In this document: piece after piece, positions 16,703 through 59,623 of the stretch
Layout: each line of letters opens with the position of its first letter
How positions within the stretch are numbered: position 1 is the first letter of the stretch
DNA from: an uncultured Alphaproteobacteria bacterium
Lineage (GTDB): Bacteria > Pseudomonadota > Alphaproteobacteria > M2410
NCBI GenBank assembly: GCA_965603015.1
Contig: CBFDBJ010000005.1
Location: 3,080 to 67,079 of the forward strand
DNA: 64,000 nucleotides
Direction: 5' to 3'
The notes under the pieces: generated by a model
The model's database searches: none
What the model was told of the DNA's origin: nothing
Seen by the model: the letters and a program-made list of their open reading frames with translations, nothing else
Program-made: the position numbers and the translations under genes

Positions 16703-17365
16703 TCACTTTGCGGAATTATATTTCTCGTTAAACTTTCTTTCGAGTTCCAGGGCATTGTCCGGCAGCTGATGCGCGATGCCCTTGTGACAATCAATGCACG
16801 TCTTGCCCTCGTCTTCGGCCTGCAGGTGACGGTTGCGCGCGCGTTTTTCCTGCAATGTCACATCCATCGCCATGAACGTATGGCAGTTTCGGCACTCGCG
16901 GCTGTCGGTCTTTTTCATGACCGTCCAGACACGCTCGGCCATTATCGGCCGCTCGTGTTCAAACTCCGCGCGGGTGTCAATGCTACCCAGTGCCCAATGG
17001 AACAATTCATTTGACGCCTGGATCTTGCGGCGGATCTTGTAGACCCACGGCTTGGGAACATGGCAGTCGGGGCAGGATGCCCGTACGCCGCTGGGATTTG
17101 TGTCATGCACTGTGCCCTTGTACTCGTTATAAACATTGGCGCGCATTTCGTGACACGAGATGCAAAATTTCTCGGTGTTGGTGATTTCCAGCGCCCAGTT
17201 AAAGCCGCCCCAGAACATAATCCCGATGGCAAAGCCCCCGATCGCGAGTGTTCCGATAGAATATTTTGCTGTGGGACGCCGGACGGTCGTCCAGATCGCC
17301 CGGAGCCTTCCCTTCATTCCAGTGGGGGATGAGACCTTGTTCCCGTCTTGTGGAGCCTCTGTCAT
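16703..17365 (-). CDS. napC: NapC/NirT-family membrane tetraheme cytochrome c
   Basis: Four CxxCH motifs (CISCH, CPDCH, CRNCH, CIDCH) after an N-terminal TM anchor. Last gene of the nap operon. Confidence 0.9.
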   Translation of the reverse strand: MTEAPQDGNKVSSPTGMKGRLRAIWTTVRRPTAKYSIGTLAIGGFAIGIMFWGGFNWALEITNTEKFCISCHEMRANVYNEYKGTVHDTNPSGVRASCPDCHVPKPWVYKIRRKIQASNELFHWALGSIDTRAEFEHERPIMAERVWTVMKKTDSRECRNCHTFMAMDVTLQEKRARNRHLQAEDEGKTCIDCHKGIAHQLPDNALELERKFNEKYNSAK

Positions 17366-17417
17366 ACTGTTTTCTCCATCTTCATAATTCGCCGGACCTG
17401 GATCCGGAATCCTTTAC

Positions 17418-17882
17418 TCACTTTTGCCGGGCGGGCTCAAACGTATTCACCACAATCGGATTTTTGTCCGTTTGGGGAACATGGCACTGAGTGCAGAACC
17501 AGCGCCCGGGATAAACGCGGTCCAACGCCTTGCCATCGCGGTCGCGATAGTGGGTCTCCGAAATCTTCGGCGCATTTTCTGTGACATTGTTTGGCCAGTC
17601 ATGACACCGCATGCACTGATTGACCTTCAAATCAATCTCATATTTGTCAACCCGGTGGGGGATGAGCGGCGGTTGCTGGCGATAGGCCTTGGTAACACGG
17701 CCGCTTTCATCCACAGAATGGATTTCATTCACGACATTGGGCTCATTTATGTCTGTTTCCCCACGCAGCGATTGAGTGCCCTCGCCATAACTGGGCGACG
17801 CAAGGGTCAGCCCGATTACGATCACTGAGAAGGCCGTCAGGGCTGTGATGGCGACCACGCCGAATTTTTCTTCCCTCTTCAT
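17418..17882 (-). CDS. napB: Periplasmic nitrate reductase diheme cytochrome c subunit
   Basis: Two CxxCH motifs (CMRCH, CTQCH) and a signal peptide. I chose the internal ATG (MKREEKF...). The ORF-track start is 17939. Confidence 0.85.
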   Translation of the reverse strand: MKREEKFGVVAITALTAFSVIVIGLTLASPSYGEGTQSLRGETDINEPNVVNEIHSVDESGRVTKAYRQQPPLIPHRVDKYEIDLKVNQCMRCHDWPNNVTENAPKISETHYRDRDGKALDRVYPGRWFCTQCHVPQTDKNPIVVNTFEPARQK

Positions 17883-17951
17883 GGCCTGAACTCCTTTCTT
17901 GATACCGCGCTGGGTATTGGATTTGTCTGATTGTGTCATGGTTCTCTCTCC

Positions 17952-18890
17952 TCAAGCTGCCGCCCGCCGGGCAGCGGCTTTGTCTGGCTCTATGCCAGTG
18001 TTAAATCGTGTTGTCAGTTTAAAGACCGAGTGCGGACAGACATCGGTGCACCGTCCGCACAGAGTGCAATCGCTGGAAAGGATTAAGGGGCCGGCGTCTG
18101 CCGCATTGGCACCTTTTAACGCGGGCGCTATAACCTGGGGCTCGGGGCAGACCGCATAGCAAAGCATGCAGTTGTCACACTTTGAGCGGGATGCGGCGCT
18201 GATGACCGGGAGACGGAAACGGCCGATGAGGCCATAAAAGGCGCCGACAGGACACAGATGTCCACACCACCCGTGGCGCGAGACAGCGACATCAAAGGCA
18301 AACAGCGCGGCGAGCATCGTCAGGGTAAACCCGCTGGTCCACAATGTTCCGAAGACGAGTTCGCGGTGCAGCATCGTTATCGGATTAACAGATTCCCAGA
18401 ATACCGTGCCGCTCAAGAATGCGGCAAGAAGGATCATGGCCAGCACCCATAGTCTGATCTGCCTGGCCGGTTGCCATCCTTTCGCGAAAGCAAAGCGCCG
18501 ATGGATCCAGTGAGCCGCATCGGTCAGCAGGTTGATCGGGCAAACAAAAGAGCAATAGGCCCGCCCGGCGAAGATCGCATAGACCGCCGTGACAATCGCC
18601 ATGCCGATGAGAACCGTGGACGCCAGAGCGTGACCGGCCAGAAAGACCTGCAGGCCCACGAGGGGGTCCGTCAAAGGCAAGACGCCGAACGTCATACTGG
18701 ACGCCAGGGTTCCCTTTGCAATCCAGATGCCGACAAGGGGACCACTCATAAAGACCGCAAGAAATGTCAGTTGAGCCACACGCCGGACAATGAGCCACTT
18801 GTTGGCCCGCAGCTTGCCCTTTGCTGCGACCGCAGCGCGGCCCGGCCTTCTGACATCCACGAGGGGGCTGAGTGTCCTTGTGCCACTCAT
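17952..18890 (-). CDS. napH: Ferredoxin-type membrane protein NapH
   Basis: 312 aa with 4 TM helices and C-terminal CxxCxxC...CP iron-sulfur motifs (CDNCMLCYAVCP, CTLCGRCTDVCP). Overlaps napG by 4 nt. Confidence 0.85.
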   Translation of the reverse strand: MSGTRTLSPLVDVRRPGRAAVAAKGKLRANKWLIVRRVAQLTFLAVFMSGPLVGIWIAKGTLASSMTFGVLPLTDPLVGLQVFLAGHALASTVLIGMAIVTAVYAIFAGRAYCSFVCPINLLTDAAHWIHRRFAFAKGWQPARQIRLWVLAMILLAAFLSGTVFWESVNPITMLHRELVFGTLWTSGFTLTMLAALFAFDVAVSRHGWCGHLCPVGAFYGLIGRFRLPVISAASRSKCDNCMLCYAVCPEPQVIAPALKGANAADAGPLILSSDCTLCGRCTDVCPHSVFKLTTRFNTGIEPDKAAARRAAA

Positions 18891-19651
18891 GGGGTCACCT
18901 CTTCAGGAAGGCGATCTGGCAGATCAATAATATCTTCGACCAACGGGCGTCCGTGTCTTGCCTTTTCTTTCCAGCCAAGGCGGTAATGTTCGCCCAGTTG
19001 TCCCAGTGCGAGCTCACGTGGCAAAACTTTGATTGAGGCTTTGGGCAGCACGCAAGCGCTCTCGCACTTGCCGCAACCGGTGCAGTGTTCCGGGTCCACC
19101 GTTGGAATAAATTTCGCGTGGGCGCCGCTGCGTTCATCATGCTGGCGGTCGAGCCGGATTGCCTTATCGATGACCGGACAGACCCGGTAACACACATCAC
19201 ATCTCAGGCCGAGTGTATTGAGGCAGGTGTCCTGGCCCACCAGAACAGCAACACCCATCCTGGCATCATCAATATCAGTCAACTCTTTTGACAGCGCGCC
19301 GGTGGGGCACGCAGCAACGCAGGGAATGTCATCACACATTTCGCACGGCACGTTACGGGCGATGAAGAACGGCGTCCCGGCAGCCACTGGCGAACCGAGG
19401 CGCGACAGGCTCAAGGTATCGTAAGGACAATCCGCGACGCATTGACCGCAATGCACGCAGGCACCGAGAAACTTTTCTTCGACCAAGGCGCCGGGCGGGC
19501 GAAGCGCCACGGCGGGTAAAGCCTCCGCCTTGTTGTTAATCAGAGAAATTCCCAGGCCCATCATGCCAACACCACAGGCCGACCCCGCCGCTTCCTTAAA
19601 GAAGCGACGGCGATCGACCGGTCTTTTTGCTGTGTCAGCGAAGCTGTTCAC
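18887..19651 (-). CDS. napG: Ferredoxin-type periplasmic protein NapG
   Basis: Tat signal (RRRFFKEAAG) and four 4Fe-4S cysteine clusters (CVHCGQCVADCP, CEMCDDIPCVAACP, CLNTLGLRCDVCYRVCP, CTGCGKCESACV). Confidence 0.85.
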   Translation of the reverse strand: MNSFADTAKRPVDRRRFFKEAAGSACGVGMMGLGISLINNKAEALPAVALRPPGALVEEKFLGACVHCGQCVADCPYDTLSLSRLGSPVAAGTPFFIARNVPCEMCDDIPCVAACPTGALSKELTDIDDARMGVAVLVGQDTCLNTLGLRCDVCYRVCPVIDKAIRLDRQHDERSGAHAKFIPTVDPEHCTGCGKCESACVLPKASIKVLPRELALGQLGEHYRLGWKEKARHGRPLVEDIIDLPDRLPEEVTP

Positions 19652-19680
19652 TGGCCCTTCCCTTCAGGCGAAAACATGGG

Positions 19681-22182
19681 TTACGCCTTGACGACCCTGA
19701 CGGCGCACTTCTTGAAGTCCGTTTCCTTGGAAATAGGACAAGTGGCGTCGAGTGTCAGCTTGTTGACGAGCTGCGTTGCATCGAACCAGGGAATGAAGAC
19801 GACCCCTTGCGGTGGTTTATTACGCCCCTTGGTTTCGACGCGGGTTCGCAATTCGCCGCGGCGGGTTTGCAGCTTGACCTCCTGGCCGCGCCTCAACCCT
19901 CGTTCTTCGGCATCAACCGGATGCATGAAGACCTGCGCATTCGGATAGGCCCGGTGAAGCTCGGGGACCCGAGCCGTCATGGAACCGGAATGCCAGTGCT
20001 CAAGAACACGCCCGGTGGACAGCCACAGATCGAATTCATCATCGGGCTCTTCGGCGGCGGGCTCATAAGGTGCGAAAATGATGTTCGCCTTGCCGTCGGG
20101 CTTGCCATAGAACTCAAAGTCCTTGCCCGGCTTGACGTAGGGATCATAACCCTCGCGGAAGCGCCACAGGGTTTCCTTGCCATCAACCACCGGCCAGCGC
20201 AAACCGCGGGCCTTGTGATAGGTATCAAACGGCGCCAGGTCATGTTTCTTGCCGCGACCAAAGCTGGCGTATTCCTCGAACAGACCCTTCTGAATATAAT
20301 AGCCGAAATGATCGGCTTCGTGGTTGCCGTGACCTTCCTGCTTTTGCGAAAGCGGGAACTGATCCACTTCACCATTGGCATACAGAACATCATAGAGCGT
20401 CTTGCCGCGATATTCGGGCATTTGAGCAATGAGTTCTTGCGGCCAGACCTCCTCGACCGTGAAACGCTTTGAAAATTCCACGAGTTGCCAGAGATCGGAT
20501 TTGGACTCGCCCGGTCCGGCAACCTGTTCGCGCCAGAACTGCGTGCGTCTCTCGGCGTTACCGTAGGCGCCTTCCTTTTCGACCCACATGGAGGTCGGCA
20601 GGATGAGATCGCCCGCCATGGCGGTTATGGTCGGATAGGGGTCGGAAACGACGATGAAGTTTTCGGGGTTACGATAACCGGGATATGTTTCCTCGTTGAG
20701 ATTGGGCGCGGCCTGAACATTGTTATTGCACATCACCCAATAGGCGTTCATGACGCCATCCTTGAGCTTGCGATTGTGCAGCACGGCATGGAAGCCTGGC
20801 TTGGGAGGAATGGTTCCCTTCGGCAATTTCCAGATTTTCTCGGCGATATCGCGGTGCGCTTCCTTGGCGACCACCAGATCGGCTGGCAGGCGGTGGGCGA
20901 AAGTTCCAACTTCGCGCGCAGTGCCACACGCTGATGGCTGACCGGTCAAAGAGAACGGCCCACTGCCCGGCGTGGAGATCTTCCCGGTGAGCAGGTGAAT
21001 ATTGTAAAGCAAGCCATTGACCCATGTGCCGCGAGAATGCTGGTTCACACCCATTGTCCAGAGTGACATGATCTTGCGATCTGGATCCGCATAGGCCTTT
21101 GCCATACGCTCCAGATTTTCTGGCGGAACTTTGGACAGCTTCGATGTGTACTCGAGGGTATATTTCGAAACAGCGGCCTTGTATTCGGTAAAATCGATCT
21201 TGGTGAGCTTGCCATGTTTGCCTTCATGGGCCGGATTGTCGGCAGCCTGTTCGCGCGGATCTTCCGGGCGCAGGCCATAACCAATACCGGTTGCGGTTTT
21301 GGTTATGTTGACGTGTTTGGCGACAAATTCCTCATTCACCGCACCACTCTCAATAATGTAATTGGCAATATAGTTGAGGATGGCGAGATCGGTCTGTGGT
21401 TCAAAAATCATCTGGTTGTCAGCAAGCTCGAAACTGCGATGCTTGTAGGTCGACAGAACGTGAACCTGGCAGCCGGGTTTGGTGAGACGCGTATCGGTCA
21501 ACCGGGACCACAGAATCGGATGCATCTCCGACATGTTAGAGCCCCACAGAACAAAATCGTCGGCTTCCTCAAGGTCATCATAGCAACCCATCGGCTCATC
21601 AATGCCAAAGGCGCGGATGAACCCGGCAACTGCCGAGGCCATGCAATGACGTGCGTTGGGATCAAGATTATTGGACCTGAAGCCTGCCTTCATCAGCTTG
21701 GAGGCTGCATAACCCTCCCACACGGTCCATTGTCCCGAGCCAAACATACCAACCGATGTCGGGCCTTTCTTTTTCAGAGCGTCCTTGAACTTGACGGCCA
21801 TGATGTCGAAGGCTTCATCCCAGGAAACAGGTGTGAACTCGCCCTCTTTGTCATACTGGCCGTCGGTCTTGCGTAGCAACGGCGTCGTCAGGCGATCCTC
21901 GCCGTACATAATCTTGGAGAGGAAATAGCCCTTGATGCAGTTAAGACCCCTGTTGACCGGGGCATCCGGATCGCCCTGGGTCGCGACCACGCGGCCCTCC
22001 TTGGTTCCGACAAGGACCGAGCACCCGGTACCGCAGAAACGGCAGGGAGCCTTGTCCCAGCGGATGTCTGACTGAACGGGCTGAGCAACCGCTGCAGGGT
22101 TTGAAGCAATCGCAATGCCCGCCGCTGCGGCTGTTGCGCTTACTGCGCTGGTCTTGATGAATTCGCGCCTGTTTTGTTTCAT
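19681..22182 (-). CDS. napA: Periplasmic nitrate reductase catalytic subunit
   Basis: 833 aa with a Tat signal [22 protein letters not shown], an N-terminal 4Fe-4S motif CRFCGTGCS, and molybdopterin oxidoreductase domains. Confidence 0.95.
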
Positions 22183-22490
22183 GTTTCATCTCCTGAAACT
22201 GTCGTGGTTTGAGCCTGGGTCAGGTCCGATCCGAAACCCTGCCCCTCAATTTGTTCAAAGTGGTGATAGACCAGCGACGCCGAAGCGACGCCGGGAAGCG
22301 ATTGTATTTGAATGAGAATGTCGCCAGCCTGCCTCTGGTTGCCGGACTCAACTGTAACGACCAGACGTCCATCATCTGTTTCGTGATGGACCTCTGTGCC
22401 GGGCATCGTGCTCAGATCATCAACAAGACCGGATGCCTTGCCGGGTATCGCGTGAACCAAAAGACCGCAGACAATGAGCTCTTCATTCAA
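22179..22490 (-). CDS. napD: NapA chaperone NapD
   Basis: 103 aa small acidic protein immediately upstream of napA, overlapping it by 4 nt. Position and size match NapD. Confidence 0.7.
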
Positions 22491-22819
22491 GAGACAGTCT
22501 CCTCGTTGTCCAGTTTAGCTTGCCAAACCGGTGTGATTGCCTGTGCCGGACAGACCGCCTTGCAGTCCATGCAACCGTTGCACAAGGTTTCGTCGACCAT
22601 GGGCACAGCACGGCCACCGGTCATCAATTGAAAGGAAATTGCCCCGCGGTCACATTCGTCCTCGCAGAGACGGCACATGGTCCCCGAGACGCTGAGGCAT
22701 CGGCTGTTGATCGTGACACCAACGGCTTCTTCAGATGCCGTTACATTGACATCTGTTACAGCTGCGTCAGTGCGAAACCGACCGCGCAGAAATTGCTTTC
22801 TGGAAATCTCGACGTTCAT
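22487..22819 (-). CDS. napF: Ferredoxin-type protein NapF (short form)
   Basis: 110 aa first gene of the operon. It has one canonical CxxCxxCxxxCP motif (CNGCMDCKAVCP) and one atypical cluster (C-x7-CRLCEDEC). It is shorter than E. coli NapF. Confidence 0.6.
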   Translation of the reverse strand: MNVEISRKQFLRGRFRTDAAVTDVNVTASEEAVGVTINSRCLSVSGTMCRLCEDECDRGAISFQLMTGGRAVPMVDETLCNGCMDCKAVCPAQAITPVWQAKLDNEETVS

Positions 22820-23060
22820 GCGACCCTGTCGTCTGTTGGATTTAGCGACAGATCAAACTCGATCCGCTGCCTCATCTGGATGCAGACATTACATATTCAA
22901 AACGGCAATCATATTTGCCAGATTGCCGCAAGTCGGCATGTCGCACGCTGCTTTGACACGCGCCAGCCGGTTACCCTGGAACTATCCCAAAGTTGCGTTT
23001 GAGGTGCTTAATTTTTTGTTAACACCCAGGTGTCCGCCGGGTGGGAAGGCTCGGAAAAAT

Positions 23061-24422
23061 CTAGTAGGCGCAATCCGAATAAAGCCGCTTGATATCGCCC
23101 TGCCAGTCATTGTGGAAAGCCTCGAGCAGATCCTCTGCGGGCGTCTTACCACGTTCCAGACTGTCCTGAAGTGTAGCAAGGAAGTGGACTTCATCGACAC
23201 CGGCACTGTCGAGCCTGGCGCGTGCTTTCAGACCCTGCTTCGCCAGGTCCACGACGTCCTTCGCGATCTCAAGAACGCTTCGACCGCAAATTTCAGCCCT
23301 GAATCCAAGACGTGCGACATCGCGCCGCAGAGCTTCCATTTCCTCCGGGCTCCATCCCTTTGCAATATCCCAGGCCGCATCAAGCGACGACTGGTTGTAA
23401 AACAGGCCAACCCAAAGCGCGGGCAAAGCGCAAATCCGATCCCAGGGACCGCCATCGGCGCCGCGCACTTCCAGATATTGCTTAATGCGCGCTTCAGGGA
23501 AAATTGTTGTCAGATGATCGGCCCAATCGGACAGGGTCGGCTTTTGCCCCTCGAAGCCCTCCAGTTTTCCATCAAGGAAGTTACGGAACGATTTGCCACT
23601 CACATCGTGGTAGATCCCGTCGCGATAGACAAAATACATCGGCACATCGAGGGCAAAATCCGTATAGGCCTCGAACCCGAAACCCTCCTCAAAAACAAAC
23701 GGCAAAACGCCGGTGCGATCCGGGTCCGTATCGGTCCAGATATGGGCGCGGTATGACAAATATCCGTTGGGCTTGCCGTCAAGGAACGGGGAATTGGCGA
23801 ACAGCGCTGTGGCAATTGGCTGGAGCGCGAGGGCAACGCGCAGTTTTTGCACCATGTCGGGCTCCGAGCCGAAATCAAGATTGGTCTGGATGGTGCAGGA
23901 GCGGAACATCATATCGAGACCCATACTGCCTTTTTTAGGCATGTAGCTCGACATGATGCCGTAGCGGCCCTTGGGCATGACCGGAACCTGATCGCGGGTC
24001 CAGTCGGGCGTAACACCCAGTCCGAGAAACCCGGCGCCGATTTCGTCGGCCACTTCGCGGACCTGATCGAGGTGGGTATGAACCTCGTTGCAGGTCTGGT
24101 GCAGGGTCTTCAGATTGGCGCCCGAAAGCTCCAATTGCCCGCCAGGCTCGAGACTGACGGAGGCACCGTCCTGCAAAAGACCGATAATCTTGCCCTGTTC
24201 GCGCACCGGCTCCCAGCCAAACCGTGTCAGTCCATTGAGCATGGCCTCGATCCCGGCGGGACCCTCATAGGGGAGCGGCGCAAGGGTCTCGGCGTTGAAG
24301 CTGAATTTCTCGTGCTCGGTACCAATGCCCCATTTATCCTCGGGCTTTGATCCATCGGCCAGAAACCTGACCAGATCGTCCCTCGATTCAACGGGTCCAC
24401 CACCTTGCTGCGGTATCGACAT
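23061..24422 (-). CDS. gshA: Glutamate--cysteine ligase, plant/alphaproteobacterial type (GCS2)
   Basis: 453 aa with GCS2 family blocks (GTEHEKF, RSCTIQTNLDFGSE, PFVFEEGFGFEAY). Confidence 0.9.
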   Translation of the reverse strand: MSIPQQGGGPVESRDDLVRFLADGSKPEDKWGIGTEHEKFSFNAETLAPLPYEGPAGIEAMLNGLTRFGWEPVREQGKIIGLLQDGASVSLEPGGQLELSGANLKTLHQTCNEVHTHLDQVREVADEIGAGFLGLGVTPDWTRDQVPVMPKGRYGIMSSYMPKKGSMGLDMMFRSCTIQTNLDFGSEPDMVQKLRVALALQPIATALFANSPFLDGKPNGYLSYRAHIWTDTDPDRTGVLPFVFEEGFGFEAYTDFALDVPMYFVYRDGIYHDVSGKSFRNFLDGKLEGFEGQKPTLSDWADHLTTIFPEARIKQYLEVRGADGGPWDRICALPALWVGLFYNQSSLDAAWDIAKGWSPEEMEALRRDVARLGFRAEICGRSVLEIAKDVVDLAKQGLKARARLDSAGVDEVHFLATLQDSLERGKTPAEDLLEAFHNDWQGDIKRLYSDCAY

Positions 24423-24648: not shown

Positions 24649-25398
24649 TTACCAGTCGCCTCGGGTGGCCTGGAAAACTGCGAGGGCGGCGAGGGCGGCG
24701 GTGTCGGCGCGCATGATCCGGGGGCCAAGCGATACCGCCATGGCAGGGGCAAAGCGGCGCAGGGTCTCGCGTTCCTCATCGGCAAAGCCGCCTTCGGGAC
24801 CGATGAGGATCGACCAGGGGCCATCCGAATCAGACCTTTCGAGCGCCTCCGCCAGTGGCGCCGCGTCCCTTGATTCATCGCAAAAGATGAGCCCGCGCCC
24901 CGGGGGCCATTCTGCAAGCAGCGTCTCCAGCTTCACTTCATGCTTTACCTCCGGCACATCGAGCCGGCCGCACTGCTCTGCAGCCTCGACGACATTGGCG
25001 ACCATACGGTCCTGTTTCACTTTTGCGTTAGTGCGCCGGGTGATGACGGGACGAATGACTGAGACACCAAGCTCGGTGGCCTTCTGCACAAGAAAATCGA
25101 GCCGCAGCTTTTTGACCGGGGCAAACAGGAGCTCGAGGTCGGGGGTTATGGTCTGGGCGCGCGACGGTTTGACAACCCTCAGGTCCAGCGCCTTTTTGCC
25201 GATTTTGGCGATCTCGGCCAGCCACTCCCCGTCGCGGCCATTGAACAGCAGCACGGTCTCGCCCATGCTCTTGCGCATCACATTGGCAAGATAATGAGTT
25301 TGTCCCGGGTCGAGGACGACCCCAGCCCCCTCGGCCAGATCATCGCCGACAAAAAGTCTGGTTTTTGCAAAATCAAAGGGCTCCAAAGCCGTCGACAT
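24649..25398 (-). CDS. rsmE: 16S rRNA (uracil1498-N3)-methyltransferase
   Basis: 249 aa RsmE family, with a PUA-like N-terminus and a SPOUT C-terminus (LIGPEGGF). Confidence 0.85.
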   Translation of the reverse strand: MSTALEPFDFAKTRLFVGDDLAEGAGVVLDPGQTHYLANVMRKSMGETVLLFNGRDGEWLAEIAKIGKKALDLRVVKPSRAQTITPDLELLFAPVKKLRLDFLVQKATELGVSVIRPVITRRTNAKVKQDRMVANVVEAAEQCGRLDVPEVKHEVKLETLLAEWPPGRGLIFCDESRDAAPLAEALERSDSDGPWSILIGPEGGFADEERETLRRFAPAMAVSLGPRIMRADTAALAALAVFQATRGDW

Positions 25399-25464: not shown

Positions 25465-26460
25465 ATGTCAACGTCGTCGCCACAGGGCCAGCCCCGGAAC
25501 AAAGTTTCTGACGCCCCGCGCGCCAACTGGGTCGATCGTTACGCCCCCGAAAGAACCAAGCCATACCTTCGCCTTGCGCGGGCGGACCGCCCTATCGGGA
25601 CCTGGCTTTTGCTGCTGCCCTGCTGGTGGGGGATGGCACTGTCTTATGGTTACGAAACTTGTAATATCGCAACCGAAACGTGTGGTTCCGCTGCCGAAAT
25701 TCATCATATCGCTCCCGGAATGATTTTGTTTTACGGGCTCCTGTTCGCCATCGGCGCCTTTGTCATGCGTGGCGCCGGGTGCACCTATAACGATATTGTT
25801 GACCGCGATTTTGACGCACAGGTTGAGCGTACGCGGTCGCGCCCGATCCCCAGCGGCCAGGTCTCGCACAAAATGGCGCTGCTGTTTTTGACGTTCCTCA
25901 GCCTTGTCGGGCTCGCCGTGCTGGTCTCGTTCAACCCTTTCACGGTGCTTCTGGGGCTTTCATCCCTCGGGCTTGTTGCCATCTATCCGTTCATGAAGCG
26001 GGTCACGCACTGGCCGCAAATCTGGCTCGGCTTGACCTTCAACTGGGGCATTTTGATGGGCTGGAGTGCGCTGGCCGGCAGCCTCTCGCTCGCGCCGCTG
26101 CTGTTCTATGCCGGAGCGATATTCTGGACCATTGGCTATGACACGATCTACGCTCATCAGGACAAGGAGGATGACCTCATGGTCGGGGTTAAATCCTCTG
26201 CCATTCGCCTCGGGCAAAATTCGAAATTCTGGATTGGGGTGTTTTACGGCGCCACCATCGGGTTTTTTGTCGCGGCGGGTTTTGCATCAGGGCTCGGCCC
26301 CCTGTTCTTTGCCGCGATGATTGGCGCTGCCATGCACCTCCTCAGACAAATCAGAAAGGTCGATATTGACGACCCGGATATTTGTCTGAAGGTTTTCAAA
26401 TCAAACCGCGATTTCGGTTTTGTCATTCTTGCCGCTATTATTCTGGGGCATGCCCTATAA
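25465..26460 (+). CDS. ubiA: 4-hydroxybenzoate polyprenyltransferase (UbiA family)
   Basis: 331 aa polytopic protein with UbiA motifs (NDIVDRDFDAQVERTRSRPIPSG, YDTIYAHQDKEDD). Confidence 0.85.
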   Translation: MSTSSPQGQPRNKVSDAPRANWVDRYAPERTKPYLRLARADRPIGTWLLLLPCWWGMALSYGYETCNIATETCGSAAEIHHIAPGMILFYGLLFAIGAFVMRGAGCTYNDIVDRDFDAQVERTRSRPIPSGQVSHKMALLFLTFLSLVGLAVLVSFNPFTVLLGLSSLGLVAIYPFMKRVTHWPQIWLGLTFNWGILMGWSALAGSLSLAPLLFYAGAIFWTIGYDTIYAHQDKEDDLMVGVKSSAIRLGQNSKFWIGVFYGATIGFFVAAGFASGLGPLFFAAMIGAAMHLLRQIRKVDIDDPDICLKVFKSNRDFGFVILAAIILGHAL

Positions 26461-26537
26461 GGCGAAATCCCGAACACTCTCTCCCTGCCAATAAGAACTC
26501 TTGGCAGGAAGGGTTCGACCCCCTATGATTCCGACCT

Positions 26538-27536
26538 ATGTCAAAAGCCGCCCGATATCTGCCTCCCGAGGACATCAAACAAGTCTCTGAACGCTCCGAT
26601 TTCAAGGGTGCGTGGCTGGTGTTCCATGCCTGGGCGACGATCTTCGGGTCGATGGCTCTCTTCGCGATATTCCCCGATACGCTGACTTTCATCCTTGCAA
26701 TCTTGCTGATCGGCGGCAGGCAACTTGGCCTTGCGATCCTCATGCATGACGGCTCGCACGGCGTGCTGTTCAAGACACCAAAATACAACGCGGTCGCCGT
26801 TCAATGGCTGTGCGCCTACCCGATATTCTCGGAGATGTGGGCTTATCGCAAATATCATCTGGTGCACCATAAATTCACCCAGCAGGACAATGATCCCGAC
26901 TTGTCCCTCTCGGCCCCCTTCCCGATCTCGCGGGCGAGTTTTCGGCGCAAGGCGGTGCGCGATCTGACCGGGCAAACCTGTTTCAAACAAAGGCGCGCAC
27001 AATTTCGTGCAGGAATGGGCGACCCCTCCCTGCCACTCGGGGCACGACTGCAGAATTTCTACAACCGCTTCCGTGGACCGCTGCTGATGAACTTCGGGCT
27101 GTTTGTTTTGCTGGCCCTGGTCGGCAAGTGGCACTACTATTTTCTGTTCTGGATCCTGCCTTTTATGACATGGCAACAGCTTATCCTTCGTGTGCGGAAT
27201 ATAGCCGAGCACGCCATGGTTCCGGCGCAGGATGATGTTTTCCTGAATGCTCGGACGACAAAGGCGAGCTGGATCATCCGGGCGATCCTCGCGCCCTACT
27301 ATGTCAACTATCATGTCGAGCATCACATGATGATCTATGTGCCGTGCTATAATCTGCCGCTGGCCCACGAGCTTCTGCGGCGCCGGGGCTGGCACGACAG
27401 CATGGAAATCCAGCCGAACTACTGGGACGTTCTCAAGATGGCCACGTCAAAGCCCGATGATGGCTCTCGGTCCGGCGACGGCCGCGAGGCGACGCTTTTT
27501 GCGGGGATCAACGGACCGATAGGCGAGACCAAGTGA
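26538..27536 (+). CDS. Membrane fatty-acid-desaturase-family di-iron enzyme (three His boxes)
   Basis: 332 aa with His boxes HDGSHG, HLVHHKF and HVEHHMM and 4 predicted TM helices. Confidence 0.8.
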   Translation: MSKAARYLPPEDIKQVSERSDFKGAWLVFHAWATIFGSMALFAIFPDTLTFILAILLIGGRQLGLAILMHDGSHGVLFKTPKYNAVAVQWLCAYPIFSEMWAYRKYHLVHHKFTQQDNDPDLSLSAPFPISRASFRRKAVRDLTGQTCFKQRRAQFRAGMGDPSLPLGARLQNFYNRFRGPLLMNFGLFVLLALVGKWHYYFLFWILPFMTWQQLILRVRNIAEHAMVPAQDDVFLNARTTKASWIIRAILAPYYVNYHVEHHMMIYVPCYNLPLAHELLRRRGWHDSMEIQPNYWDVLKMATSKPDDGSRSGDGREATLFAGINGPIGETK

Positions 27537-28198
27537 TTACGCCCGGGCGTGCGCTCGACCATCCTGAAGCCTTCATTCTTGAAAACACACGGCTTCAAAG
27601 CTCTCCTCTTGTGCCCGAAATCCAGCTTCATCTGGCCGATGAAATGTTGCCCCTGTGGAAGCTGACTGAAGACGAACTTGACGCGTCCGGTCTGCCGCCG
27701 CCGTGGTGGGCCTTTGCGTGGGCTGGCGGACAGGCGCTGGCGCGGCACATTCTTGACAATCCCGAGCTGGTGCGCGGCGCCCGCGTCCTCGACTTTGCCA
27801 CAGGATCCGGCATCGTTGCCATTGCCGCCATGAAGGCAGGCGCCATGAGCGCACGCGCCAATGACATCGACCCCATGGCCATCGCCGCCACACAGCTCAA
27901 CGCCGAGGCCAACGGCGTTTATGTCCGGGTCAGCGCCGACAATCTGGTTGGTCAGCCGAGCCACGGCTGGACGACCGTGCTGGCAGGCGACATCTGTTAC
28001 GAACAACCGCTTGCCGGCGAGGTCGAGGCCTGGCTCAAGTCACTGGCAGGAGACGCCCTCGTCCTGATGGGCGATCCGGGGCGCACGTATCTGCCAAAGG
28101 CGGGCATGACCCGGGTCGCGGAATACCGCGTCGAGACGACCCGGGAACTGGAAGACAATGATGTGCGTCATACGACCGTCTGGAGATTTGAGCCTTGA
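27533..28198 (+). CDS. Class I SAM-dependent methyltransferase (COG3897-like)
   Basis: 221 aa with SAM-binding motif I (VLDFATGSGIVAIAA) and an acidic post-I motif (ANDID). Start overlaps the desaturase stop (ATGA). Confidence 0.7.
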   Translation: MITPGRALDHPEAFILENTRLQSSPLVPEIQLHLADEMLPLWKLTEDELDASGLPPPWWAFAWAGGQALARHILDNPELVRGARVLDFATGSGIVAIAAMKAGAMSARANDIDPMAIAATQLNAEANGVYVRVSADNLVGQPSHGWTTVLAGDICYEQPLAGEVEAWLKSLAGDALVLMGDPGRTYLPKAGMTRVAEYRVETTRELEDNDVRHTTVWRFEP

Positions 28199-28268
28199 GG
28201 GTTTGATTGCGCCGTCAATTTGAACTTGTTAGGTTCATTTTGATTCCTCTGGAAAGCCCCTGGTTCTC

Positions 28269-29768
28269 ATGTCCTACAAGTCCCTGCGAGATTTTATCGA
28301 TCACCTTGAACGCGCAGGCGAGCTGGTCCGCGTTTCAGAACCGGTTTCGACCTTTCTTGAGATGACCGAAATCCAGACGCGGCTGTTGGCAAAAGGTGGT
28401 CCGGCGGTGCTGTTTGAAAAACCGGTCAATGAGCGCGGCGAGCCCTCCGACATTCCGGTTCTTGTCAACCTGTTCGGCACGGTCAAGCGTGTTGCCATGG
28501 CGGTGACCCTTGAAGGAAAAGAGCGCACAGAAGCAAAGGATCTGCGCGAGGTTGGCGAGGCGCTGGCGTTCCTGCGCCAGCCCGAACCGCCCGGCGGTAT
28601 CAAGGAAGCGGTGGCCATGCTGCCGCTGGTCAAGACCGTTTTGCAGATGAAGCCAAAGACCGTGGCGAGCGCGCCGGTACACGAAGTTGTCCTGACAGGC
28701 GACGATATTGACCTGACAAAGCTCCCCATTCAGACCTGCTGGCCGGGCGAGCCCGCACCGCTCATCACCTGGCCGCTTGTCGTGACCGAAGGGCCAACGG
28801 GCAAAGGCGAGGACAGTTTTAATCTCGGCATCTACCGGATGCAGTTGCGCGACAGCAAATCGACACTGATGCGCTGGCTGAAACACCGCGGCGGCGCCGC
28901 GCATCACCGGCGTTGGGCGGAGATTTCAGAAGAACCGCTGCCTGTGGCTGTTGTGATCGGCGCGGACCCCGGGACCATCCTGGCGGCAGTGACCCCGGTG
29001 CCTGACACGATATCGGAATATCAGTTCGCCGGGCTGTTCCGCGGCAAGCGCGTCGAGCTTGTCGATTGCAAGACCGTTCCCCTGAAAGTCCCCGCCGAAG
29101 CCGAAATCGTTCTGGAAGGCCATGTCTCGCTGACGAATTACGAGGATGAAGGTCCGTACGGGGATCATACGGGTTATTATAATTCTGTTGAGCAATTCCC
29201 GGTGTTTACGGTGAGCGCCATCACCATGCGCAAGGACCCGCTTTATCTTTCGACCTTTACCGGTCGGCCGCCGGATGAGCCGTCTGTGCTTGGCGAAGCG
29301 CTCAACGAGGTTTTCGTGCCGCTGATCAGGCAGCAGTTCCCGGAGATCACAGATTTTTACCTGCCGCCCGAAGGCTGCTCCTACCGCATCGCCGTCGTCT
29401 CCATGAAGAAAGCCTTCCCGGGGCATGGCAAGCGCGTAATGATGGGGGTGTGGTCCTACCTGCGCCAGTTCATGTATACCAAGTGGATCATCGTCGTGGA
29501 CGACGACATCGATATTCGGGACTGGAAGGATGTCATGTGGGCTGTTTCAACCCGGATGGACCCGGTGCGCGATATCACGATGGTCGAGAACACACCGATC
29601 GACTATCTCGACTTCGCCTCGCCGGAAAGCGGCCTCGGCGGCAAGGTCGGGCTTGATGCGACCAACAAACTGCCACCCGAAACTCACCGCGAATGGGGCC
29701 ACAAGATCACCATGGATCCGGCGGTTGTGGAGCTGGTGACGAAGAAGTGGCCGAAGCTTGGGCTATAG
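28269..29768 (+). CDS. ubiD: UbiD-family decarboxylase (3-octaprenyl-4-hydroxybenzoate carboxy-lyase-like)
   Basis: 499 aa with UbiD family blocks ([32 protein letters not shown]). Confidence 0.9.
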
Positions 29769-29958: not shown

Positions 29959-30660
29959 ATGGGAACGAAGTTGAATAGAAAAGTTCTAGGCCTTGGCGCT
30001 GCACTGATTGGTGCTGTATTTGCCTCTGCCTCTGCCTATGCGGGCGCAGTATTGGTGATGATCGATGATCTCGGTGGCACAGTCGCCGTTGTAGATAATG
30101 GCGCAGGCGATTCGGATGCGACTGTTGGCGTTATCAATTACAACGGGGCGATCGGCGCATGGCTGGTTACAGCGGAGATCGGCGTTTCCAAGCCTATCGT
30201 TGGCTCAGCCTCGGAAGCTCAAGTGGATTTGCTCTCGGTTAACGCTTCAAGCGGCGCTGCCGGGGACCTTTATGTTCTGTTTTCCGATACGGATTTCATC
30301 AGCACGGGCGGCAACATGTGGTTTGACCTTGCCATTGGCGGGACCACTGACGGGACCGTCGAGACTGCCGGTTGCTTCAACGCCAGCAATTCAAACTGGA
30401 TGGACGAGGGCTTATGCGAAAACCTGTTTCTGCTTTCGCCAGTCCTGAACACAAATCCATTTTCATGGGCCGGTGGCACTTCGGTTGCAACATCCGGTGA
30501 CCTGTTCAGCCTTGGTATTGGCGCTTTGATTAGCCATGACAAAGGCGGGATTACGAGCTTTGACGCCAACCTGCGTGTGCCAGAGCCTGGCATGCTTGGC
30601 TTCCTCGGCTTTGGTCTCCTCGGCATGGGCCTTGCTGCCCGTCGTCGCCGGAAAGCATAA
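29959..30660 (+). CDS. Secreted PEP-CTERM sorting-domain protein (putative exosortase substrate), paralog 1
   Basis: 233 aa with signal peptide (AYAGAV), a Gly/Thr/Ser-rich domain with two Cys, and a C-terminal VPEP-GMLGFLGFGLLGMGLAA-RRRRKA (PEP motif, TM helix, basic tail). An AAGGAG RBS lies 8 nt upstream. Confidence 0.8.
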   Translation: MGTKLNRKVLGLGAALIGAVFASASAYAGAVLVMIDDLGGTVAVVDNGAGDSDATVGVINYNGAIGAWLVTAEIGVSKPIVGSASEAQVDLLSVNASSGAAGDLYVLFSDTDFISTGGNMWFDLAIGGTTDGTVETAGCFNASNSNWMDEGLCENLFLLSPVLNTNPFSWAGGTSVATSGDLFSLGIGALISHDKGGITSFDANLRVPEPGMLGFLGFGLLGMGLAARRRRKA

Positions 30661-30864: not shown

Positions 30865-30942
30865 AATAAGGGGTATCGCCCATGAGGGGTTTTTGGTCTT
30901 TTGTACCAGTTGTGTAACAGTCAGAGTTGAGTGGTGAGTGTA

Positions 30943-31635
30943 ATGAAAAGTAAAACAGCCCTGAGTATTGGGATTGCCCTTTTGGGTATAGTGTGTGGCT
31001 CTTCGAGTGCGTTTGCAGGCGCAATGATGGTGCTGATTGATGATCTCGGCGGCACAGTCGCTATTGTAGATAACGGTGCAGGCGATTCGGATGCGACTGT
31101 TGGTGTTATCAATTACAACGGGGCGATCGGCGCATGGCTGGTTACAGCGGAAATCGGCGTTTCCAAGCCTATCGTTGGCTCAGCCTCGGAAGCTCAAGTG
31201 GATTTGCTCTCGGTTAACGCGTCAAGTGGCGCTGCCGGAGAGCTTGTCGTTTTGTTCTCTGATACAGATTTCATCAGTACGGGCGGCAACATGTGGTTTG
31301 ATCTTGCCATTGGCGGCACAACTGATGGAACCGTTGTAACGGGTGGCTGCTACAATGCCAGCAATACGAACTGGACCGATGGTGATTCATGCGAAAACCT
31401 GTTTCTGCTTTCGTCGGATCTGACCGGAAATCCATTTTCATGGCTTGACGGTGGATTGGTTGCAACATCCGGTGACTTGTTCAGCCTTGGTATCGGGGCT
31501 GCGATTGTCCACGACAAAGGCGGCATTACCAGCTTTGATGCCAACCTGCGTGTGCCAGAGCCTGGCATGCTTGGCTTCCTCGGCTTGGGTCTCCTCGGCA
31601 TGGGCCTTGCTGCCCGTCGTCGTCAAAAGGCATAA
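30943..31635 (+). CDS. Secreted PEP-CTERM sorting-domain protein, paralog 2
   Basis: 230 aa, about 85% identical to paralog 1, with the same architecture and C-terminal VPEPGMLGFLGLGLLGMGLAARRRQKA. I chose ATG at 30943 (MKSKTAL...). An alternative GTG lies at 30931. Confidence 0.8.
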   Translation: MKSKTALSIGIALLGIVCGSSSAFAGAMMVLIDDLGGTVAIVDNGAGDSDATVGVINYNGAIGAWLVTAEIGVSKPIVGSASEAQVDLLSVNASSGAAGELVVLFSDTDFISTGGNMWFDLAIGGTTDGTVVTGGCYNASNTNWTDGDSCENLFLLSSDLTGNPFSWLDGGLVATSGDLFSLGIGAAIVHDKGGITSFDANLRVPEPGMLGFLGLGLLGMGLAARRRQKA

Positions 31636-31825: not shown

Positions 31826-33184
31826 ATGACATCCCAGAGTGAGCTCTCCGGCAGCTCCATAGAAGACGTTGTCGCAGCCCTTGTGAAGGAAGCGATCAAG
31901 GCTGGCGCAGATGCTGCCGATGCACTCGTGGCCGAGGGGATATCCCATGCGGCCTCGTTTCGCCTTGGCAAGCTGGAGGATATCGAGCGCTCCGAGGGTC
32001 AGGACCTGGGCCTCAGGGTGATGGTTGGCCAGCGCCAGGCGGCGGTTTCATCCAGCGATCTTTCAAGAGAAGGGCTCCAGCCCCTGGCCGAGCGGGCTGT
32101 GGCCATGGCGAAACTGGCGCCGGAGGATCCTTATTGTGGGCTCGCGCCGGACGATCGCCTCGCCAAGGACTTCCCGGACCTTGATCTCATTGATCCGGTG
32201 GAGCCGGGCTCCGACCATCTCATAGAACTGGCCCGGACCGCCGAGGAGGCTGCCCTTGCCATTGAGGGTGTTACCAATTCCGGCGGTGCAGGCGCAAGCT
32301 GGGGGCGATCCGGCATCGTGCTGGCGACCTCGGCCGGATTTGTTGGCCGGTATGGCGGAACCTCGCAAGGTGTCTCTGTTTCTGTTGTCGCCGGTGAAGG
32401 TGCCGCGATGGAGCGCGACTATGACTTCACCCAGGCGCGCCATGCAGAAGACCTCGAGAGCGCGGCTAAAATCGGCCAGAGCGCCGGGGAGCGCGCCGTA
32501 AAACGGTTGAATGCTCGCAAGATGGCCAGCCAGAGCGTGCCCGTTGTTTACGACCCAAGGGTTTCCTCGGGTCTTGTCGGGCATCTGGCCGGGGCAATAT
32601 CGGGCTCCGGCATTGCCCGGGGCTCAAGCTTCCTCAAGGACCAGATGTGTAAGCAAATTTTCAAAGCGGGCCTTTGCATCATCGATGATCCACATCGCAA
32701 GCGCGGTTTCGGGTCAAAGCCGTTCGACGGCGAAGGCGTTGCCAACAAGCGCCACAATCTCATTGAAGATGGCCGCCTCACCACGTGGCTGCTCGACACC
32801 GCCACGGCCCGGCAGCTCGGGCTTGAGACCACCGGGCATGCCAGCCGGGGCATCGGCGGACCGCCCTCGCCCGGCGCGACAAATCTCTATATGGAGCCCG
32901 GCGACCTGAGCGCGGACGAACTCATCGCAGACATAAAATCGGGGCTTTATATCACCCAGCTCATCGGCTCGGGCGTCAACGGCATCACCGGCGATTACAG
33001 CCGCGGCGCGTCGGGCTTCTGGATCGAGAACGGCGAGATTGTTTTTGCGGTCAACGAGATTACCGTCGCGGGCAATCTCAAATCCATGTTTGCCGAGATG
33101 ACGCCGGCCAACGACCTTGAGTTCAAAGGCCGTGTCAACGCGCCAACCATACGCATCGATGGCATGACCATCGCCGGAACGTGA
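31826..33184 (+). CDS. pmbA: Metalloprotease PmbA/TldE
   Basis: 452 aa TldD/PmbA family protein without the HExxxH motif of TldD, which matches PmbA. Confidence 0.9.
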   Translation: MTSQSELSGSSIEDVVAALVKEAIKAGADAADALVAEGISHAASFRLGKLEDIERSEGQDLGLRVMVGQRQAAVSSSDLSREGLQPLAERAVAMAKLAPEDPYCGLAPDDRLAKDFPDLDLIDPVEPGSDHLIELARTAEEAALAIEGVTNSGGAGASWGRSGIVLATSAGFVGRYGGTSQGVSVSVVAGEGAAMERDYDFTQARHAEDLESAAKIGQSAGERAVKRLNARKMASQSVPVVYDPRVSSGLVGHLAGAISGSGIARGSSFLKDQMCKQIFKAGLCIIDDPHRKRGFGSKPFDGEGVANKRHNLIEDGRLTTWLLDTATARQLGLETTGHASRGIGGPPSPGATNLYMEPGDLSADELIADIKSGLYITQLIGSGVNGITGDYSRGASGFWIENGEIVFAVNEITVAGNLKSMFAEMTPANDLEFKGRVNAPTIRIDGMTIAGT

Positions 33185-43554: not shown

Positions 43555-44631
43555 ATGACAGAAGAACCGACACGCGAGGAACTGAATACCGGCACCAAGG
43601 ACGTTGCCGAGACCCACAAGTTCGATGAGAACGCGCTTCGCGACTATATGGAAGCCAATGTAGCTGGCTATGAGGGTCCGCTTGAGGTCAGCCAGTTCAA
43701 AGGTGGTCAATCCAATCCGACCTACCAGCTTATAACGCCGCGCCAGAAATATGTCATGCGGCGCAAGCCTCCCGGCAAGCTTCTGCCCTCTGCCCATGCG
43801 GTTGACCGCGAGTACAAGGTCATCACGGCACTGGGCAAGACCGACTTTCCCGTTCCCAAGACCTTCTGTCTTTGTGAGGATACCGACGTTATCGGCACGA
43901 TGTTCTACATCATGGAAAAAGTCGACGGCCGCATTTTGTGGGACCTCTTGCTTCCGGCAGAAAACCCTCAGTCGCGCCGCGAAATCTACGACAGCATGAA
44001 TGCAACGCTGGCCAAGCTGCACAAGACTGACTACACAGCCATTGGCCTTGAGGACTATGGCAAGCCGGGGAACTATTTTGCCCGCCAGATCTCGCGCTGG
44101 ACCAAGCAATATCAGATGTCCGAAACCGAAGAGATCAAGGAGATGAACAATCTCATTGCGTGGCTACCCGATGCAATCCCGCAAGATGACCTGACGACCA
44201 TTGTCCACGGGGATTATCGTCTCGATAACATGATCCTGCACCCGACAGAAAACCGCGTAGAGGCTGTTCTGGACTGGGAATTATCCACTCTCGGACATCC
44301 GATCGGTGACTTCACCTATCACCTGATGTCGTGGAAGATGCCATCGCGCGACGGCGGCGAAACGCTCTTGTCCTCGGACCTCAAGTCGCTTGGTATTCCG
44401 ACGGCTGAGGAATACACAGAAATGTATGAGGCGCGAACAGGCTACGTGGTTGGAGAGAACATCAACTTCTACCTGGCCTATAACTTCTTCCGTCTCGCCG
44501 GGATTTTGCAGGGCATTGTCGGACGTGTGCGCGACGGAACCGCCAGCTCTGCCAATGCAGAAGCCAATGCCGCAGCGGTGCGCCCGCTGGCTGAAGGTGG
44601 TTGGGCCTATGCGAAGCTTGCCGGGGCTTGA
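43555..44631 (+). CDS. Phosphotransferase (APH/choline-kinase-like) family protein
   Basis: 358 aa kinase-like fold with a Brenner motif [11 protein letters not shown] and D-x-E (DWELS), resembling the ACAD10/11-type N-terminal kinase domain. Confidence 0.8.
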
Positions 44632-44800: not shown

Positions 44801-44814
44801 AATTGTGGGGATTG

Positions 44815-45267: not shown

Positions 45268-45326
45268 AGGGGCCACAATGCGCCTAACGCTTTGCCGCGT
45301 CAAAGGGAGCTGATAGGAAGAGCCCC

Positions 45327-58349: not shown

Positions 58350-58530
58350 TGCAGATCTTGTTCCCGAAGTTTTTCTTTGGCGCCAACGGGACTCGCACAA
58401 ACCGCGTCAACTGCGATAACACCCTGGTTCTAGCAACAATTTGTTGCTTTTCGCTAAACAGTTTTATTAACAAGTTGTTAGAAATCTCCCGGACCACGTC
58501 GCAGACAAGGTTCAAATTCATCGACTTTTC

Positions 58531-59613: not shown

Positions 59614-59623
59614 GAACCTGACT

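Follow-up and report, generated by a model that had tools for sequence, protein, structure and literature searches.

A cluster of four + strand genes was analysed at 25465–29768 of a 64,000-nt stretch of alphaproteobacterial DNA, which is referred to as the window. The cluster consists of ubiA, the gene of a membrane protein with three histidine boxes (His boxes; Des), a methyltransferase gene (MT) and ubiD. We estimate a probability of about 0.6 that it is a compacted form of an old alphaproteobacterial neighbourhood, in which gshA and rsmE face away from ubiA and Des, MT, ubiD and pmbA follow ubiA in this order, and is not a quinone-tailoring operon. The sequence-only reading had proposed a module for the modification of a quinone or another prenylated aromatic compound. 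The gene identities, the position of Des outside the acyl-lipid desaturases and the conserved gene order are in line with that proposal; the METTL20 type of MT and the separate control and mobility of Des are not.

Under the preferred explanation, UbiA would prenylate 4-hydroxybenzoate and UbiD would carry out a decarboxylation, both in ordinary ubiquinone synthesis, as their families suggest. MT would most likely methylate lysines of ETFβ and perhaps of L7/L12; an Agrobacterium enzyme of the METTL20 type reportedly acts on ETFβ and perhaps on L7/L12. MT appears to lack a promoter of its own and, judging from its overlaps, would be read through from the gene upstream. Des probably hydroxylates or desaturates an aliphatic C–H of a hydrophobic or amino-acid-like substrate with O2 and an electron donor. 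A dedicated TetR repressor, seen as gene context, may control Des in many relatives.

The open reading frames (ORFs) of the cluster lie at 25465–26460 (331 aa), 26538–27536 (332 aa), 27533–28198 (221 aa) and 28269–29768 (499 aa). Their coordinates bear out the earlier description of four genes on one strand, with 77 bp between ubiA and Des, an overlap of 4 bp between Des and MT, and 70 bp between MT and ubiD. The overlap had been given as ATGA, which has to be corrected: the sequence reads aaGTGAtta, and the GTGA combines a GTG start with a TGA stop.

The four gene products

The family-level assignments made earlier (UbiA, a three-His-box protein, a class I methyltransferase and UbiD) are right by Pfam and NCBIfam. 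The product of ubiA (25465–26460) matches PF01040 with E 1e-61 and passes the equivalog model TIGR01474 (ubiA_proteo) of 4-hydroxybenzoate polyprenyltransferase with 370.5 bits against a cut-off of 275.45. The product of ubiD (28269–29768) belongs to the family of 4-hydroxy-3-polyprenylbenzoate decarboxylases dependent on prenylated flavin mononucleotide. Its N-terminal, Rift-related and C-terminal domains (UbiD_N, UbiD and UbiD_C) are all present, and it scores 518 bits with TIGR00148 (cut-off 245) and stays slightly below the E. coli-type equivalog PRK10922 (693 bits versus a cut-off of 788). A ubiquinone role of this protein is suggested by its family, by the presence of ubiA and by its 74–79% identity to UbiD of related loci. 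At the family level, ubiA and ubiD can be regarded as normal genes of ubiquinone synthesis. Pfam and NCBIfam scans of the 64-kb window found no other ubi genes, that is, no ubiG, ubiE, ubiX, ubiB, coq7 or flavin hydroxylase gene.

The methyltransferase gene (27533–28198) was first called by its domains as a class I enzyme of the PrmA/MTS type. Its product shares 40% identity (BLASTP, E 2e-43) with human ETFβ-KMT (METTL20) over residues 12–221, aligned to 48–262 of the human protein, and the family profile of MT matches the same protein with an hhalign probability of 100 (E 3e-41). The human reference sequence (P0241) was confirmed to be 100% identical to the named human database entry. In the PDB, no sequence matches better than PrmA, whose similarity spans just ~70 residues (E 6e-8). 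The AlphaFold2 (AF2) model, with a predicted local distance difference test score (pLDDT) of 88.7, has the seven-β-strand fold, and its top fold matches are the lysine methyltransferases FAM86A and METTL21A-D, and PrmA; UbiG appears only in the 25th and 34th places. The GTG start is backed by residues that are invariant from F14 on in 38 homologues and by the recurrence of this 4-bp overlap among relatives. Strand β4 (148–152) is directly followed by D153-I-C-Y156, and D153 and Y156 are invariant in the 38 sequences. DxxY is the METTL20-group consensus at motif Post II, although a search of the text of a review found no ‘DXX’. Post II of the seven-β-strand lysine methyltransferases has been placed at the end of β4 (PMC10238732).

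On these similarities, MT is assigned as a bacterial protein-lysine N-methyltransferase of the METTL20/ETFβ-KMT type. There is no UbiG or UbiE model among its Pfam and NCBIfam matches, which, together with the METTL20-type similarity, makes a quinone ring O- or C-methylase implausible; the non-canonical ring O-methyltransferase suggested earlier is instead an enzyme resembling human ETFβ-KMT. Homologues of METTL20 from the Alphaproteobacteria R. etli and A. tumefaciens have been reported to methylate ETFβ (PMC9006661). An MT-like copy is present in S. meliloti (53% identical) and in Rhizobiaceae-type loci, where neither Des nor ubi genes accompany it. Among the relatives of MT, the annotations ‘predicted nicotinamide N-methylase’ and ‘L11 methyltransferase’ are in use, and PF10294 is matched by many. 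The 64-kb window contains no ETF genes.

Des (26538–27536), a predicted integral-membrane di-iron oxygenase, matches PF00487 (FA_desaturase) with 117.8 bits against a gathering threshold of 29.7, and every source record names its relatives ‘fatty acid desaturase’. The three His boxes are HDGSH (70–74), HLVHH (107–111) and HVEHH (259–263), in which H70, H74, H107, H110, H111, H259, H262 and H263 are invariant in the family alignment. The only NCBIfam models that match are those of GntB (NF041365, 105 bits versus a cut-off of 380) and CrtW (NF045690, 21.5 versus 350). Eight reference enzymes, each verified by exact look-up, were scored with the Des-family profile: CrtW reached 30 bits, the Δ12 desaturase DesA 22, DEGS1 13, the Δ5 desaturase Des of B. 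subtilis 11, FAD2 (Δ12) 11, AlkB 5, SCD1 (Δ9) 0.5 and DesC (Δ9) −0.9. Inside their own groups the acyl-lipid desaturases score 86–140 bits. The possibility, raised with the original proposal, that Des clusters firmly with acyl-lipid desaturases is not borne out, with at most 22 bits against the verified Δ5, Δ9 and Δ12 enzymes; nor does Des belong with DEGS, the sphingolipid Δ4-desaturase, or with AlkB (13 and 5 bits). By its sequence, Des is a member of the His-box superfamily outside all characterised clades, in a clade centred on the Alphaproteobacteria.

The profile gives 269 bits with a homologue from A. baumannii (330 aa, 38% identical) and 94 bits with an rtxC-like desaturase encoded on an S. 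meliloti plasmid. The A. baumannii protein was considered as the characterised DesA and rejected, the published DesA primers (PMC11448061) being absent at its locus; therefore, no function transfers from it to Des. The rtxC-like protein, which has His boxes and bears the name ‘fatty acid desaturase family protein’, is encoded in an amino-acid natural-product cluster of plasmid pSmeAK21a (L095; NZ_CP026528.1, 74031–78395), between transferases dependent on pyridoxal 5′-phosphate (PLP) and a gene of the γ-glutamyl-γ-aminobutyrate hydrolase family. This layout presumably resembles the rhizobitoxine (rtx) cluster.

The AF2 model of Des is helical (pLDDT 81.6). Its only fold matches in the PDB are AlkB (8sbb) and a chain of the Chlamydomonas Ycf2/Orf2971-FtsHi complex (8xqw_M and 8xks_K), which are uninformative on the substrate; a PDB sequence search gave no match. 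The family is large, with 816 clusters at 50% identity (E ≤1e-30), and in the best 150 of their representatives the Des domain is never joined to UbiA, MT, a Ubi protein or a redox partner. The only fusion among these 150 links a Des homologue with a seven-bladed β-propeller lactonase domain (P0504, 697 aa); whether genuine or an artefact of gene calling, it is probably irrelevant to Des.

Gene order in relatives and transcription signals

The context of Des was recorded at the 80 nearest genome loci as the genes seen within ±10 kb of the match, and the neighbouring genes were called by tblastn and Pfam. L-numbers denote the related loci compared. All of these loci are alphaproteobacterial, and the Des of the closest genome representative is only 65% identical. 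ubiA lies upstream of Des at ~58 of the 80 loci, with the divergent gshA-rsmE pair beyond it at ~50–58. In the window, gshA (23061–24422, − strand) encodes a plant-type glutamate-cysteine ligase (TIGR01436, 668 bits versus a cut-off of 463), and rsmE (24649–25398, − strand), which is divergent from ubiA, encodes a 16S rRNA U1498 methyltransferase (NF008696, 328 bits versus 234); the divergent rsmE and ubiA are kept as a pair in most related loci. The 3′ end of the conserved block is pmbA (31826–33184, + strand; three PmbA_TldD domains), which is found downstream of ubiD in many related loci as well. Since the unrelated housekeeping genes gshA, rsmE and pmbA are conserved about as well in the block, the synteny alone is weak evidence.

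Directly 3′ of Des, MT is found at ~33 of the 80 loci; in many of these the two genes overlap by 4 bp or are less than 30 bp apart. ubiD, where visible, lies 0.05–9.6 kb past Des or MT. The compact four-gene form occurs at only ~7 loci, in several lineages (L010, L041, L052, L066 and L077), and in L011 the order is ubiA-Des-ubiD without MT. Parvibaculum has the order ubiA-MFS-TetR-Des-APH; its MT follows ribF at a distance of 9.5 kb, and ubiD comes after MT. The ~20 kb between its ubiA and ubiD hold APH, rluC, rsmD, HAD and ribF genes. The window counterparts of the APH-family kinase, the rluC-type pseudouridine synthase, rsmD, ribF and the HAD hydrolase lie at 43–61 kb (43555–44631, 45327–46849, 57375–58400 and 60313–61200), 14–31 kb downstream and partly inverted, so that one or few rearrangements separate the two layouts.

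The outer junctions of the cluster accept inserted genes. In the closest relatives, opposite-strand genes split ubiA from Des (L001, with a cupin gene, and L093) and MT from ubiD (L092). In other lineages the gap between ubiA and Des holds MAPEG, SnoaL-like, TetR, MFS or DUF1311-like genes, the DUF1311-like label being our reading of a motif. We also note that the MAPEG product of this gap is a membrane protein of 148 aa (L031, L053, L059 and L069), and that the SnoaL/NTF2-like one has ~121–125 aa (L046, L054, L021 and L034). Both are hydrophobic-ligand-binding families, and MAPEG genes also occur 3′ of ubiD in L001, L003, L007 and L008.

A TetR gene directly precedes Des in many loci of Parvibaculaceae, Rhodobiaceae and Tepidicaulis. 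In Nitrobacteraceae and Xanthobacteraceae, at no fewer than 11 loci, a TetR gene of another kind (TetR_C_12), unrelated to that of the Parvibaculaceae, and Des are found immediately upstream of fabD; a 4-bp overlap of TetR and Des was seen in L080 and L081, the two examined in detail. The arrangement with a − strand DUF2232 gene, then TetR(TetR_C_12)-Des and then fabD was observed in L080, L081, L063, L076, L079, L082, L084, L087 and L089. Rhodoblastus has AtuA, one further gene and Des, and two loci have MFS-Des. The relocated Des keeps 50–54% identity, and 22 of the 80 Des loci show no ubiA, MT or ubiD within 10 kb.

In a neighbour-joining tree of Des, with Acinetobacter and rtxC-like sequences as the root, every non-ubi context falls into a single derived clade, and all deeper branches have ubiA-Des-MT; the ubiA-Des-MT order is therefore ancestral, and Des was relocated a single time. 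In a clade with Des of 44–51% identity (L110, L130 and L139), gshA-rsmE has moved away and ubiA-Des-MT has stayed together. As to the co-occurrence of Des and MT with ubiA and ubiD, which the sequence-only reading had made a test of its proposal, ubiA-Des-MT is conserved across deep lineages, and Des and MT each also occur without ubi genes. An enoyl-CoA hydratase was considered as a travelling partner of Des and MT and set aside, the copies in different lineages being only 27–36% identical and hence paralogues.

The context of MT was examined at 80 metagenome loci. The gene directly 5′ of MT encodes an EVE-domain protein at ~22 loci, Des at ~14, UbiA at ~11 and RibF at one. The EVE form reads gpsA-yciI-EVE-MT, and in S. 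meliloti tsaD-gpsA-yciI-EVE-MT is followed by sdhCDAB. In the MT tree the EVE, Des and ubiA contexts are interleaved, and MT overlaps ribF or ubiA in relatives as it overlaps Des here; therefore, MT is conserved with or without Des and coupled to whichever gene lies upstream. Its homologues are 53–63% identical in lineages without Des. A third, independent arrangement of MT and ubiA, EVE-MT-ubiA, was observed on a seawater metagenome contig (L097, 1244–3196). We also note that one S. meliloti record among the MT loci, of 3.7 Mb (CP090106.1, L090), is labelled ‘plasmid pSymB’, carries sdhCDAB, hemC, tsaD and gpsA and looks like a chromosome; other multi-megabase ‘plasmids’ among the PLSDB matches belong to Acinetobacter, Shinella and Methylobacterium.

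The spacer between ubiA and Des contains a promoter-like site, TTGGCA-17-TATGAT (26501–26529, + strand), which agrees with the consensus at 10 of 12 positions and ends 8 nt before the Des ATG. It is the best-conserved part of the spacer in L092, a relative of 88% identity. TTGGCA-18-TAAACT lies 6 nt before the Des ATG in L001, despite the opposite-strand cupin gene between ubiA and Des. The predicted promoter, a match to consensus only, would give a leaderless or near-leaderless Des mRNA, and Des-MT, possibly extended to ubiD, would form a transcription unit of its own. A repeat search also found an inverted repeat at 26481–26511, to which no strand is assigned, with arms of 11 nt (CTCCCTGCCAA / TTGGCAGGAAG) that are 91% complementary, 9 nt apart and overlap the −35-like hexamer. 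Its right arm is fully and its left arm nearly conserved in L092. The repeat could serve as an operator or fold into an RNA hairpin; it is not followed by a T-run and was not called by the terminator scan, which detected no intrinsic terminator-like site in the three junctions. A single four-gene operon is favoured by the common strand, the short gaps and the lack of an intrinsic terminator in the junctions, and disfavoured by the promoter-like site before Des, the opposite-strand insertions at the outer junctions and the rarity of the compact form (~7 of 80 loci).

Alternative explanations and flanking genes

Several observations weigh against the explanation of the cluster as a compacted housekeeping neighbourhood. 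ubiA-Des-MT persists on every deep branch, which is more than drift alone would predict, and translational coupling of Des and MT recurs in many lineages. The sequence of Des is not that of an acyl-lipid desaturase, and CrtW, one of its nearer relatives, acts on an isoprenoid. The adjacency of MT and ubiA in three arrangements (ubiA-MT, ubiA-Des-MT and EVE-MT-ubiA) hints at selection for the linkage. In addition, the Des and MT trees are quick ones computed without support values.

One alternative is that Des is a membrane acyl-lipid or acyl-CoA desaturase for membrane fluidity, governed by a fatty-acid-sensing TetR as in DesT/DesB, and stands in the housekeeping block by chance. We consider this unlikely. 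The Pfam FA_desaturase match of 118 bits and the source names agree with it, as do the TetR-Des operons, the place of Des right before fabD in Nitrobacteraceae and Xanthobacteraceae, and the A. baumannii homologue of 38% identity, whose gene has a long-chain fatty-acid transporter gene and an NAD(P)H oxidoreductase gene nearby. This is in contrast to the profile scores of 22, 11, 11, 0.5 and −0.9 bits with DesA, B. subtilis Des, FAD2, SCD1 and DesC, whose own-group scores are 86–140, and to the nature of the best relatives, GntB (105 bits), the rtxC-like protein (94) and CrtW (30), none of which has an acyl chain as its substrate. The homologue from A. baumannii, moreover, is not the characterised DesA.

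There is a small chance that Des, alone or together with MT, tailors a prenylated aromatic compound or quinone in a non-canonical way and cooperates with UbiA and UbiD, for instance by oxidising the polyprenyl tail or a ring substituent or by supplying a hydroxylation. The position of Des directly 3′ of ubiA at ~58 of the 80 nearest loci and on every deep branch of the Des tree fits such a role, and so do the intact ubiA-Des-MT where gshA-rsmE has left (L110, L130 and L139), the compact ubiA-Des-MT-ubiD of several lineages together with the ubiA-Des-ubiD of L011, and the place of Des outside the acyl-lipid clades and nearer to CrtW with its isoprenoid substrate. There is also room for it in the ubiquinone pathways of Alphaproteobacteria, in which many steps are still uncharacterised according to the UbiN paper (PMC10626278), and a recent preprint likewise finds steps still open (bioRxiv 10.64898/2026.03.05.709815). 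Against this, MT is a protein-lysine N-methylase of the METTL20 type, and Des has moved by itself, accompanied by a TetR gene, into contexts with fabD, AtuA or MFS at 50–54% identity. TetR control and the separate promoter-like site suit a conditional function rather than a core step of biosynthesis; the gap between ubiA and Des is a hot spot of insertion, and the attachment of ubiD is loose. In the best 150 representatives of the 816 clusters, Des is never fused to UbiA, MT or a Ubi protein, and unrelated genes share the same synteny (gshA, rsmE and pmbA, and ~20 kb of housekeeping genes in Parvibaculum). Moreover, hydroxylation of an aromatic ring carbon is not known from any His-box enzyme.

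In its most specific form, which we regard as similarly improbable, Des would be a new membrane di-iron oxygenase of alphaproteobacterial quinone metabolism that oxidises the polyprenyl tail or a prenylated ubiquinone precursor, or takes electrons from the quinol pool. Such a role would explain the retention of the gene directly 3′ of ubiA and beside that of the ETFβ methylase from before the divergence of the alphaproteobacterial orders.

The slimmest chance is given to a two-enzyme unit in which Des and MT act on one substrate, for instance by hydroxylating and N-methylating a basic amino acid or the head group of an amino lipid, or in which MT methylates Des or its electron donor: the Des-MT gap of −17 to +30 bp, often the 4-bp overlap, in ~25–30 loci of several families, and the pairing of a nearest characterised Des model for an L-arginine hydroxylase with an amine (lysine) N-methylase speak for it, and it is opposed by an MT that is equally conserved (53–63% identity) in lineages without Des, where the gene coupled to it is ubiA, ribF or one encoding an EVE-domain protein, by a Des conserved without adjacent MT, and by the report that the R. 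etli and A. tumefaciens homologues of MT methylate ETFβ (PMC9006661). Supply of 4-hydroxybenzoate, a carnitine-like hydroxylation of trimethyl-lysine and modification of ornithine-lipid head groups were set aside as speculation.

Literature searches returned no description of this gene combination, nor of a METTL20-type gene linked to ubiA, Des or ubiD, and Degli Esposti 2017 mentions no desaturase in the Ubi synteny.

If the compacted neighbourhood is the right explanation, the case is a caution that deep alphaproteobacterial synteny also joins unrelated housekeeping genes. For annotation, the ‘L11 methyltransferase’ and ‘nicotinamide N-methylase’ genes of these genomes would be corrected to bacterial METTL20/ETFβ-KMT, and the 816-cluster His-box clade is flagged as mislabelled ‘fatty acid desaturase’ and as lying outside the acyl-lipid desaturases. 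That the ETFβ methylase gene repeatedly adjoins ubiA is notable and offers a small, testable clue tying the control of electron input through ETF to the quinone pool. If the quinone role of Des were true, it would give ubiquinone biology a new enzyme class, in a mitochondria-related lineage in which several pathway steps are open.

Upstream of the cluster, a nap operon lies beyond the divergent rsmE and gshA. This periplasmic nitrate reductase cluster (16703–22490, − strand), which adjoins gshA, comprises napD, napA, two ferredoxin-type genes, napB and napC; it is present in the relatives L001 and L092 and absent from L003 and L093. A 359-aa ORF antisense to gshA (22677–23756, + strand) has no Pfam or NCBIfam match and is most likely a spurious shadow ORF. 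Beyond ubiD there are two tandem PEP-CTERM genes, pmbA, msbA, a DUF374 gene, kdtA, lpxK, lpxL and more housekeeping genes. The PEP-CTERM proteins (29959–30660 and 30931–31635, + strand; 233 and 234 aa) are 83% identical and are therefore the result of a recent tandem duplication; their genes fill the interval between ubiD and pmbA, where relatives have MAPEG and/or ArfB-like genes. Pfam gave no match for the ORFs at 44803–45441 (+ strand, 212 aa) and 59242–59736 (− strand, 164 aa). Neither an Rfam family nor a tRNA was detected when the window was scanned for them.

Comparison with known systems

The ring enzymes of ubiquinone synthesis, which are the flavin monooxygenases UbiI/H/F/L/M/N, Coq7 and UbiU/V for hydroxylation and UbiG and UbiE for methylation, resemble the present pair only in the neighbourhood with ubiA and ubiD. 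The fold and chemistry of Des are unlike those of all known ubiquinone hydroxylases, and MT has no match to the UbiG or UbiE families, UbiG being only a generic Rossmann-fold match. In the DesT-DesCB and DesA systems of Pseudomonas and Acinetobacter, the likeness is the TetR-family gene that adjoins the His-box enzyme in many relatives of Des. In contrast to these systems, no oxidoreductase gene lies adjacent to Des, Des is outside the Δ9 clade (SCD1 0.5 and DesC −0.9 bits), and the TetR genes beside it belong, lineage by lineage, to two unrelated families.

CrtW, the β-carotene ketolase, is the top-scoring verified enzyme in direct comparison (30 bits; 26% identity over 285 columns by BLASTP, E 3e-9). 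It has an isoprenoid substrate and shares with Des an HDxxHG first box and two HxxHH boxes. However, Des is 90 aa longer, its score with the NCBIfam CrtW model (21.5 bits) is far from the cut-off of 350, and carotenoid genes are absent from the window. GntB, the L-arginine γ-hydroxylase of guanitoxin synthesis, belongs to the same His-box membrane fold family, and residues 12–282 of Des align to positions 12–280 of the 308 in its model with 105 bits. This is far under the cut-off of 380, at an identity of ~28%. Both GntB and the rtxC-like membrane desaturases have substrates of the amino-acid type. Unlike GntB and the rtxC-like proteins, Des has no PLP-enzyme or other natural-product genes nearby and is a conserved chromosomal gene, not a member of a secondary-metabolite cluster.

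The closest parallel to MT is METTL20/ETFβ-KMT. MT differs from the human enzyme in having no mitochondrial presequence, with 221 aa versus 262 aa. The similarity extends over the full length, and both proteins end in ...VW.F.P. The family carries PrmA and Methyltransf_16 Pfam signatures, the seven-β-strand fold is shared, with DxxY directly after β4, and the alphaproteobacterial distribution of MT agrees with that described for the bacterial enzymes (PMC9006661).

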